64,000 bases of DNA from NCBI RefSeq assembly GCF_030013595.1, contig NZ_CP122768.1. The stretch is one strand, 5' to 3'. This stretch comes from Escherichia coli (GTDB lineage: Bacteria > Pseudomonadota > Gammaproteobacteria > Enterobacterales > Enterobacteriaceae). This document shows positions 38,417 to 41,868 of this stretch, in pieces (position 1 is the stretch's first letter; every line of letters starts with the position of its first letter). A program made the translations under genes and the position numbers. Under the pieces are notes generated by a model. That model was not told where the DNA came from and did no database searches. It was given only the letters and a program-made list of their open reading frames with translations.

Positions 38417-38530
38417 CGTAACAGTCACAATTAAAACCATTGAGTAACAATAGTTGTGGCGATAGTGGGTGCTAACTTACCAAATAATAAATTTGGTGAA
38501 TAATTGTCACGTCATTCATTCCTGAACTAA

Positions 38531-38561
38531 GGCATTTCATTCCGTTCTGATGGCATTTCAT
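38531..38561 (+). promoter_or_regulatory. Direct repeats GGCATTTCAT-N11-GGCATTTCAT in the yhjX promoter
   Basis: Two perfect 10-bp direct repeats with an 11-bp spacer about 85 bp upstream of yhjX; this is the architecture reported for the YpdB (LytTR regulator) site. Confidence 0.6.
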
Positions 38562-38644: not shown

Positions 38645-39853
38645 ATGACACCTTCAAATTATCAGCGTACCCGCTGGTTGACACTCATCGGTACTATCAT
38701 TACCCAGTTTGCGCTGGGGTCGGTTTATACCTGGAGCCTGTTTAATGGCGCGCTTTCCGCCAAGCTGGATGCGCCGGTAAGCCAGGTCGCTTTCTCTTTC
38801 GGCTTGTTAAGTCTGGGGCTGGCAATTTCATCTTCTGTTGCGGGGAAATTACAGGAACGTTTTGGCGTTAAACGCGTCACTATGGCTTCCGGCATTTTGC
38901 TGGGATTAGGCTTCTTCCTGACAGCGCATTCTGACAACCTGATGATGCTGTGGTTAAGCGCCGGTGTGCTGGTCGGTCTGGCGGATGGCGCGGGTTACCT
39001 GCTGACGCTCTCTAACTGCGTGAAGTGGTTCCCGGAGCGTAAAGGTCTGATCTCCGCGTTCGCTATCGGTTCTTATGGTCTGGGTAGCCTGGGTTTCAAA
39101 TTTATCGACACGCAGCTGCTCGAAACGGTGGGTCTGGAAAAAACTTTTGTGATTTGGGGAGCGATTGCGCTGGTGATGATTGTTTTCGGCGCAACGTTAA
39201 TGAAAGACGCACCAAAACAGGAAGTGAAAACCAGCAATGGTGTCGTGGAGAAAGATTACACGCTGGCAGAGTCGATGCGTAAACCGCAGTACTGGATGTT
39301 AGCGGTAATGTTCCTGACTGCCTGCATGAGCGGCCTGTACGTGATTGGGGTAGCGAAAGATATCGCCCAAAGTCTGGCACACCTTGATGTGGTTTCCGCA
39401 GCCAATGCAGTCACTGTTATTTCCATCGCCAACCTTTCAGGTCGTCTGGTTCTGGGGATACTGTCTGACAAAATCGCCCGAATCCGTGTTATCACCATTG
39501 GTCAGGTGATTTCGCTGGTGGGTATGGCGGCCCTGCTGTTTGCACCATTGAATGCAGTGACGTTCTTTGCAGCGATTGCCTGCGTGGCGTTTAACTTTGG
39601 CGGCACTATCACGGTGTTCCCGTCACTGGTCAGTGAGTTCTTCGGCCTCAATAACCTGGCGAAAAACTACGGTGTGATTTATCTCGGTTTCGGTATCGGC
39701 AGCATTTGTGGGTCGATTATCGCCTCACTGTTTGGCGGCTTCTATGTGACCTTCTACGTGATTTTCGCCCTGCTGATTCTGTCACTGGCGCTCTCTACGA
39801 CGATTCGTCAGCCAGAGCAGAAAATGTTGCGTGAGGCGCATGGCTCCCTTTAA
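38645..39853 (+). CDS. yhjX: MFS transporter (pyruvate-inducible)
   Basis: ORF 38600..39853 trimmed to MTPSNYQRTRWLTLIGTIITQFALG... (402 aa). Confidence 0.85.
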   Translation: MTPSNYQRTRWLTLIGTIITQFALGSVYTWSLFNGALSAKLDAPVSQVAFSFGLLSLGLAISSSVAGKLQERFGVKRVTMASGILLGLGFFLTAHSDNLMMLWLSAGVLVGLADGAGYLLTLSNCVKWFPERKGLISAFAIGSYGLGSLGFKFIDTQLLETVGLEKTFVIWGAIALVMIVFGATLMKDAPKQEVKTSNGVVEKDYTLAESMRKPQYWMLAVMFLTACMSGLYVIGVAKDIAQSLAHLDVVSAANAVTVISIANLSGRLVLGILSDKIARIRVITIGQVISLVGMAALLFAPLNAVTFFAAIACVAFNFGGTITVFPSLVSEFFGLNNLAKNYGVIYLGFGIGSICGSIIASLFGGFYVTFYVIFALLILSLALSTTIRQPEQKMLREAHGSL

Positions 39854-39935
39854 TCATCTGCCGCGAGCTACTGGGCTTTAGCCTTAGTGTGAATCAAACG
39901 CTTCAACGCAATGTATAAACAATGACGCGTAAAAT

Positions 39936-39962
39936 TTGGGCCAGTTAACTGGCCCTTTTTAC
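39936..39962 (+). terminator. Rho-independent terminator of yhjX
   Basis: GGGCCAGTTAACTGGCCC hairpin followed by TTTTT. Confidence 0.6.
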
Positions 39963-40176
39963 TGCTTTTTGTAACGCTAAAGTCTCTTTTCAAACTTGCA
40001 TTTTTGTAAATTTGTGCTTCGTGCACACTCTTTCCCCACACTTTTTCCCTTTGCTGTGGTCTACTTATTCGCGCGTGTAGATTTTACTTATCTGACTACC
40101 TCCGCACTTTTCCCCTGCCGGGCCTGAAAAGCCGTTAAGCAGGGTGTTATCACCTGTTTGTCCAGGGTTTGTTTGC

Positions 40177-41868
40177 ATGAGATACATCAAATCGATTACA
40201 CAGCAGAAGCTGAGCTTTTTGCTTGCAATCTATATTGGCCTTTTTATGAATGGCGCGGTTTTTTACCGCCGCTTCGGCAGCTATGCGCACGATTTTACCG
40301 TCTGGAAAGGCATTTCTGCTGTTGTTGAACTGGCTGCCACCGTACTGGTAACCTTCTTTTTACTGCGTCTTCTTTCGCTGTTTGGCCGCCGTAGCTGGCG
40401 TATTCTGGCGTCGCTGGTGGTGCTCTTTTCCGCAGGTGCCAGCTATTACATGACCTTCCTTAATGTGGTCATTGGTTATGGCATCATCGCTTCCGTCATG
40501 ACCACCGATATCGACCTGTCAAAAGAAGTTGTTGGTCTGAACTTTATTCTCTGGTTAATCGCCGTTAGCGCATTGCCTCTTATCCTTATCTGGAATAACC
40601 GCTGTCGCTACTCCTTGCTCCGACAACTGCGAACCCCAGGGCAGCGTATTCGCAGCCTGGCGGTCGTCGTACTGGCGGGTATTATGGTTTGGGCACCGAT
40701 TCGTTTGCTGGATATCCAGCAGAAGAAAGTGGAGAGGGCGACCGGTGTTGATTTGCCCAGCTATGGCGGCGTCGTAGCGAACTCTTATCTGCCATCAAAC
40801 TGGCTTTCGGCATTGGGGCTGTATGCCTGGGCGCGGGTCGATGAATCTTCCGATAATAATTCATTGCTTAATCCGGCGAAGAAATTCACTTATCAGGCAC
40901 CGCAAAACGTTGATGACACTTATGTCGTGTTTATCATCGGTGAAACCACGCGTTGGGACCATATGGGTATTTTCGGCTATGAGCGTAATACCACGCCGAA
41001 ACTGGCCCAGGAGAAAAATCTGGCGGCGTTCCGTGGTTACTCCTGTGATACCGCAACCAAACTCTCACTGCGTTGCATGTTTGTACGCCAGGGGGGCGCG
41101 GAAGATAATCCGCAGCGCACATTAAAAGAACAGAACATTTTCGCGGTTCTGAAGCAGTTAGGATTCAGTTCTGACCTCTACGCTATGCAGAGCGAAATGT
41201 GGTTCTACAGCAACACGATGGCGGACAACATTGCTTATCGTGAGCAGATTGGTGCGGAGCCACGTAATCGTGGCAAGCCGGTAGATGATATGTTGCTGGT
41301 AGACGAAATGCAGCAATCGCTGGGGCGCAACCCGGATGGTAAGCATCTGATCATTCTGCATACCAAAGGTTCGCATTTTAACTACACCCAGCGTTACCCG
41401 CGCAGCTTCGCGCAGTGGAAGCCGGAATGTATTGGTGTTGATAGCGGCTGTACCAAAGCGCAGATGATCAACTCCTATGACAACTCGGTGACCTATGTGG
41501 ATCACTTTATCTCCAGCGTGATTGATCAGGTTCGCGATAAGAAAGCGATTGTGTTCTACGCAGCTGACCACGGTGAGTCAATTAATGAACGCGAGCACCT
41601 GCACGGCACGCCGCGTGAACTGGCACCGCCGGAGCAGTTCCGCGTGCCGATGATGGTCTGGATGTCAGATAAATATCTGGAAAATCCGGCCAATGCGCAG
41701 GCATTTGCGCAGCTGAAAAAAGAAGCCGACATGAAAGTGCCACGCCGTCATGTAGAGCTGTACGACACCATCATGGGTTGTCTTGGCTATACTTCACCGG
41801 ATGGTGGAATTAACGAAAACAACAACTGGTGCCACATCCCGCAGGCAAGAGAGGCGGCGGCTAACTAA
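40177..41868 (+). CDS. eptB: Kdo2-lipid A phosphoethanolamine transferase
   Basis: ORF 40144..41868 trimmed to [26 protein letters not shown]... (563 aa). Confidence 0.9.

Follow-up and report, generated by a model that had tools for sequence, protein, structure and literature searches.

Promoters of the alternative sigma factor sigma-E (RpoE) have been described by Rhodius et al. 2006 (PMC1312014) as a -35 element of consensus GGAACTTTT and a -10 element of consensus (T/C)GGTCAAAA, separated by a spacer of 15–19 nt with a strong preference for 16, and followed by a discriminator of 5–6 nt and a purine start that lies 25–28 nt, preferably 26–27 nt, from the -35 element. One of the genes ascribed to this sigma factor is eptB, whose product modifies the outer Kdo of lipopolysaccharide with phosphoethanolamine and influences polymyxin and Ca2+ resistance. 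Bury-Moné et al. 2009 (PMC2731931) tabulate it within the sigma-E regulon with an 8.5-fold induction and flag it as also found by Kabir 2005 and Rhodius 2006, and reviews list it as transcribed by RpoE (PMC6358824, PMC4651636). A genomic SELEX study (PMC5493296) reported a strong RpoS-holoenzyme peak in the eptB–yhjX spacer (intensity 48.9), and eptB and yhjX are absent from its RpoE table. The promoter and leader examined here are the same locus as those studied in K-12 (Moon and Gottesman 2009; Moon et al. 2013; Kwiatkowska et al. 2018; Adams et al. 2021), and sigma-E membership and control by the small RNAs MgrR and ArcZ are already published, with no new Escherichia coli biology in them. 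We take sigma-E dependence and small-RNA control from this literature, whereas the position of the promoter relative to the published 5' ends, its sigma-E-like geometry, its conservation, the complementarity between leader and MgrR and the finding that no sigma-70 consensus is present come from our own analysis. An earlier reading of the DNA from its letters alone (the first-pass annotation) had mentioned reported envelope-stress and small-RNA control of eptB in K-12, which these reports of RpoE induction and of MgrR and ArcZ control bear out.

We analysed a 64-kb stretch of E. coli DNA (the window; coordinates refer to its plus strand unless stated), in which the RefSeq annotation gives the gene order yhjY, yhjX, eptB, tRNA-Pro, the K-12 map running the opposite way. 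The coding sequence of eptB, a Kdo2-lipid A phosphoethanolamine transferase of 563 aa, occupies 40177–41868 according to both the open reading frame list and RefSeq. Upstream, yhjX has its stop at 39853 and is followed by an intrinsic terminator at 39938–39962, found by a terminator scan: a GGGCCAGTTAACTGGCCC stem-loop at 39938–39955, with a 7-bp stem containing six G–C pairs and a 4-nt loop, and a T5 tail that runs to 39962. This terminator is the upstream boundary of the eptB regulatory spacer, which extends from there to the eptB ATG and fits 39963–40176 exactly. Its composition is 39.3% T, 25.7% C, 18.7% G and 16.4% A (65% pyrimidine), placing it at the 99.5th percentile for T and the 99.94th for pyrimidine among all 214-nt windows in the 64 kb; the T-rich region noted in the first-pass annotation thus stands, with correct coordinates. 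Four parts add up to this T-richness, namely the terminator tail, the T-rich flank and spacer of the -35 element, an upstream element rich in A and T, and the U-rich Hfq modules in the leader.

The 501 bases around the spacer are 100% identical to several complete genomes and find a match in 5,422 of 5,426 E. coli genomes. Compared with MG1655, the window carries only four substitutions and no indels across 39940–40200, at 40022, 40112 and 40136–37, none of them in the -35 and -10 blocks or in the MgrR site, and K-12 data can therefore be transferred directly. A 43-codon open reading frame at 39996–40127 was rejected as a gene: it starts upstream of the transcription start, is without a Shine–Dalgarno sequence and has no codon-like conservation.

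Two independent published constructs locate the start of transcription. The RNA employed by Kwiatkowska et al. 2018 (PMC6239178) comprised the initial 133 nt of the eptB mRNA, in which a U-rich AUUUUACUUAUCU is numbered +11 to +23 and an ACU5 motif +36 to +42. These motifs map to 40081–40093 and 40106–40112 and set +1 at G40071 (K-12 3710581), from which a 106-nt leader and exactly nine codons make up the 133 nt. The oligonucleotide with which Adams et al. 2021 (PMC7815308) cloned the eptB 5' UTR begins GCGTGTAGATTTTAC, which corresponds to G40073 (K-12 3710579). These starts are 2 nt apart, and with 40073 the discriminator would be 8 nt long, more than sigma-E prefers. From the constructs of these secondary sources we infer a start at 40071–40073; eptB does not figure in the transcription start supplements of Kim et al. 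2012.

Against this start, the spacer very probably contains a single promoter that combines the optimum geometry for sigma-E with degenerate hexamers, together with a leader under small-RNA control. The true eptB promoter is at 40037–40067. Its -35 element, CACACTTTT (40037–40045), matches the sigma-E consensus at six of nine positions and keeps ACTTTT; its -10 region, TGTGGTCTACTTA (40055–40067), has TCTAC as a core (40060–40064) with the consensus TGGTC before it. Laid out in full, CACACTT (40037–40043) is followed by 16 nt, TCTAC, 6 nt and G40071, so that the spacer (16), the discriminator (6), the distance from -35 to +1 (27 nt) and the purine start all take the values preferred by sigma-E, and TGGTC and CTTTT are shared as well. 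The differences lie in the hexamers themselves. CACACTT matches GGAACTT at four of seven positions, the missing GGA being replaced by CAC here and by GAC or GCC in other genera, and in the -10 element, TGGTCTACTT, TGGTC and TCTA match sigma-E while the last core base is C, not A, giving TCTAC where sigma-E promoters carry TCAAA, TCTAA or TCTGA. On a matrix built from 13 sigma-E promoters, the -35 sub-score is +4.6 bits (training promoters -0.9 to 13.1) and the -10 sub-score +2.1 bits (training promoters -0.6 to 10.9). The sequence reading fits the account from Moon and colleagues in 2013, in which the eptB promoter is reportedly without the expected sigma-E motifs, and in vitro transcription is said to have revealed a direct action of sigma-E from a start shared with sigma-70.

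Conservation points to the same bases. Scanning one genome per species yielded 80 enterobacterial eptB loci, and 70 of these have a single exact GGTCTAC upstream of eptB, while most others carry it with one or two substitutions. With columns anchored on this motif (78 distinct sequences, more than 20 genera), ACTTTT (40040–45) is 96–100% conserved and T.GTGGTCTACTTA (40055–67) 83–100% per base, except for G40056 at 82%, in columns surrounded by others of less than 0.5 bit. The spacer between -35 and -10 is 16 nt in all 77 orthologues scored. In some genera the -35 element comes nearer to consensus, reading CAACTTTT in Atlantibacter and TAACTTTT in Franconibacter, and the promoter blocks are kept in E. 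coli strain GN4738 though its upstream DNA and leader have otherwise diverged.

Some lineages have a rearranged neighbourhood. The lpf operon for long polar fimbriae is found directly upstream of eptB in roughly 500 E. coli genomes, including O157:H7; the junction is at about 39994, the sequence to its left being replaced and the eptB promoter being kept from about -77. The -10 core TCTAC (40060–64) also forms an inverted repeat across the start with GTAGA at 40077–81 (+7 to +11), and GTAGA is present at +6 or +7 in 29 of the 78 loci, compared to 0.5% of random 24-nt windows; the repeat could be an operator, part of the first stem-loop of the leader, or the result of shared ancestry.

The sigma-E matrix was derived from 13 K-12 promoters in the MG1655 record (degP, bamD, bamE, greA, lptA, rpoH, fkpA, micA, rybB, plsB, sbmA, micL and rpoE), and the three small RNAs among them offer an independent confirmation, their annotated 5' ends lying 5–6 nt from the -10 elements. 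Scored by leave-one-out, the 13 promoters range from 5.2 to 20.5 bits (median 16.4). At 8.3 bits, the eptB promoter is within this range of real sigma-E promoters and is the best site of the region, the next reaching 3.9; among the 127,940 positions of the window it comes 38th. Its score is nevertheless not above chance, as 8.3 bits are attained in 6.7% of dinucleotide shuffles of the region and shuffled windows contain about 43 matches of at least that score compared to the 38 observed, and we rejected the scan as a stand-alone test. Sites of at least 8.3 bits occur at about 3.4e-4 per position, and the chance that one falls at one of the few offsets that the mapped start allows is about 1e-3. 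It is thus the position of the match relative to the mapped start, not the score alone, that makes the sigma-E assignment convincing. The matrix scan put forward as a check in the first-pass annotation would thus, used alone, have missed the promoter.

Higher-scoring matches lie elsewhere in the window. The best of all (15.5 bits; CGAACCT, 16 nt, TCAGA) is at 41373 on the minus strand, antisense within eptB, and is compatible with chance, shuffles predicting 0.83 such matches per window. Another (12.7 bits, 38523–38558, plus strand) is upstream of yhjX and overlaps a direct repeat GGCATTT(CAT), which resembles the repeats bound by YpdB (LytTR) in the yhjX promoter; this match is unlikely to be a site for sigma-E.

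The same -10 block can be read in two ways, as GGTCTAc for sigma-E and as an extended -10-like TG-g-TCTACT for sigma-70 or sigma-S, and from this double reading we infer that it may serve both sigma-E and sigma-70 holoenzymes. A stricter version would make the conserved block a sigma-70/sigma-S extended -10 promoter and the induction by sigma-E indirect, for example through less MgrR or stabilisation of the mRNA. Like extended -10 (TGn) promoters, the eptB block has a TG one base before a -10-like hexamer, at the correct -15/-14 position, and no usable -35; TCTACT matches TATAAT at four of six positions and lies 5–7 nt from the mapped starts. The -10 preferred by sigma-S is TATACT, which TCTACT matches at five of six positions. 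RpoS holoenzyme binds the eptB spacer in vitro with no RpoE-holoenzyme peak listed (PMC5493296), the chief argument for holoenzymes of the sigma-70 family as principal readers, and the sigma-E matrix score, as set out above, does not exceed chance. TCTACT, however, does not have the A at -11 that extended -10 promoters require, the -10 base that matters most, and for this reason fails a sigma-70 consensus scan. The invariant ACTTTT, moreover, resembles the -35 of sigma-E promoters rather than TTGACA, the spacer and discriminator have exactly the lengths that suit sigma-E best (PMC1312014), and the reviews have sigma-E acting directly at initiation. The 2013 account is said to agree on this last point. 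We therefore consider this alternative unlikely and retain a direct sigma-E promoter as the preferred reading.

A canonical sigma-70 promoter (TTGACA, 16–18 nt, TATAAT, with A2 and T6 in the -10) is not found before eptB, in agreement with the first-pass annotation. The consensus scan of 39700–40400 returned no site (0.7 expected in shuffles), a looser scan of the region gave pairs with at most 8 of 12 matches, none positioned at the mapped start, and no hexamer at the eptB start carries both A2 and T6. The further possibility raised there, that the start maps to a standard sigma-70 promoter elsewhere in the region, is countered by the published ends at 40071–73, where there is no sigma-70 pair. 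It is very improbable, too, that most eptB mRNA is supplied by a cryptic sigma-70 promoter inside the leader or by read-through from yhjX. The leader does contain the best sigma-70-like pair of the region (CTGAAA at 40124, an 18-nt spacer and TGtTATCAC at 40145–53; 8 of 12 matches and a TG motif), but its -10 is without T at position 6 and the sequence at 40124–40153 is not conserved outside Escherichia. Read-through might be favoured by a yhjX terminator stem of just 7 bp, against which stand its six G–C pairs and T5 tail. The published eptB 5' ends, the 133-nt regulatory fragment and the northern and Term-seq 5' fragments, moreover, all begin at 40071–73.

The weakest candidate is the one proposed in the first-pass annotation, GTAACGC (39971–77) with TCAAAC (39990–95) as an alternative-sigma promoter, which would imply a leader of about 175 nt and which we find scarcely credible: TCAAAC does match the sigma-E -10 core and GTAAC resembles GGAAC, but the pair is separated by 12 nt (15–19 for sigma-E), scores -10.8 bits or worse on the matrix, falls 76–100 nt upstream of the mapped start with no 5' end reported at it, lies in a non-conserved part of the spacer (39963–39995; at most 0.4 bit per column in 78 loci, save one C) and is largely replaced by the lpf insertion in the roughly 500 O157:H7-type genomes that keep eptB and its real promoter. 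The general idea of an alternative sigma factor survives, on the 8.5-fold induction (PMC2731931) and the reviews, and the element chosen for it does not.

Between this stretch and the promoter lies a second conserved footprint, at 40000–40030 or about -71 to -41, comprising ATTTTTGTAAAT at 40000–40011 (about -71 to -60) and GTGCACACTC at 40021–40030, with up to 1.9 bits per column across the 78 loci. GTGCACACTC reads GATCACAYTC in most genera, the core of ATTTTTGTAAAT is ATTTACAAAAAT in Salmonella and the Citrobacter freundii group, and almost every genus keeps TTTTGTAAAT at about -65 with GATCACAYTC after it. To our knowledge, the consensus sequences of CRP, CpxR, PhoP, ArcA, OmpR and IHF do not fit the element in spacing or sequence. 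When each locus was folded separately and compared with shuffles, the element formed the centre of a 13–20-bp hairpin in 40 of 77 loci (dG -15.5 kcal/mol or stronger, z -3.5 to -9), whose arms are lineage-specific yet still complementary and which begins 20–45 nt past the stop codon of yhjX or an osmC-like gene, whichever lies upstream. There is no U-tract after the hairpin in these loci; the E. coli arms are degraded, and E. coli has a canonical terminator apart from the element. When arm complementarity was tested in a fixed register around TTTGTAAA, the real arms did no better than re-dealt ones, owing to an offset of 1–2 nt between them. We tentatively raise the possibility, itself rather doubtful, that 40000–40030 is an undescribed functional cis-element of the eptB promoter, such as an operator or UP-like site, or else the remnant of a terminator or insulator hairpin; the latter reading is prompted by perfect hairpins of 13–20 bp with covarying arms, in about half of the genera, directly after the upstream gene.

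Downstream of the promoter, the eptB 5' UTR (40071–40176) has a length of 104–106 nt and, from PMC6239178 and a minimum-free-energy fold, contains two U-rich Hfq-binding motifs, AU1 (40081–93) and AU2 (40106–12), and a G+C-rich hairpin at about 40112–40144. These are followed by a Shine–Dalgarno-like CCAGGG (40162–67) and a predicted MgrR pairing site across the AUG (40168–40185). In a 30-nt sliding duplex search, MgrR nt 54–68 and eptB +98 to +115 are predicted to form a duplex of -22 kcal/mol; TTGCATGA of this site is invariant in 70 UTRs, and the 3' part of the leader, CCAGGGTTTGTTTGCATGAGATACAT, is highly conserved in the 70 leaders. The predicted site agrees with the Term-seq 3' end reported at K-12 3710464, directly downstream of the MgrR pairing site (PMC7815308), which corresponds to 40188 in the window, 12 nt into the eptB open reading frame. 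With AU1 and AU2 at their published positions and a duplex predicted over the AUG, the leader has the features of an Hfq-dependent 5' UTR repressed by small RNAs. The placement of an ArcZ site by the same search is uncertain. Whole-length RNAduplex runs of MgrR or ArcZ against the leader gave meaningless global hybrids and were discarded in favour of the sliding search. Rfam covariance models matched nothing in 39700–40400 at E-values up to 1, and RNAalifold on the 70 leaders returned no consensus structure, the MAFFT alignment being poor in the central leader.

The leader varies between lineages in several respects. AU2, which is important for Hfq-assisted annealing of MgrR (PMC6239178), reads ACUUUUC here (40112) and ACUUUUU in K-12; the allele of the window is common to about 680 genomes at ≥99% identity. 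Raoultella and an Enterobacter species carry an insertion of about 120 nt in the eptB 5' UTR, between the conserved +1 region and the G+C hairpin and within 240 nt upstream of the ATG. We presume this insertion to be ERIC-like (enterobacterial repetitive intergenic consensus). The protein encoded at 40177–41865 is 90% identical to that of Citrobacter amalonaticus, 78% to that of E. albertii and 79–80% to those of E. whittamii and cryptic-clade Escherichia, and the promoter and leader DNA of E. albertii, E. whittamii and the cryptic clades is nearly the same as in the window. This divergence of the coding region within Escherichia, despite a near-identical promoter and leader, suggests an allelic replacement of the eptB coding region.

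Put together, the promoter and the leader would operate as follows. The weak promoter match would keep basal eptB transcription low, and the release of sigma-E under envelope stress would raise initiation. The U-rich leader of 104–106 nt would then bind Hfq, and PhoP-dependent MgrR, and ArcZ, would pair with it across the start codon and silence translation, so that EptB would be produced only if transcription driven by sigma-E outpaces the small RNA.

In this sense eptB is a classic example of an alternative sigma factor working against silencing by small RNAs, to which our analysis adds the precise placement of the promoter in the window. The degenerate sigma-E-type core of this promoter ranks with the best-conserved non-coding DNA of the eptB locus in Enterobacteriaceae. 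That a sigma-E matrix scan alone would miss such a promoter is a caution for regulon prediction.
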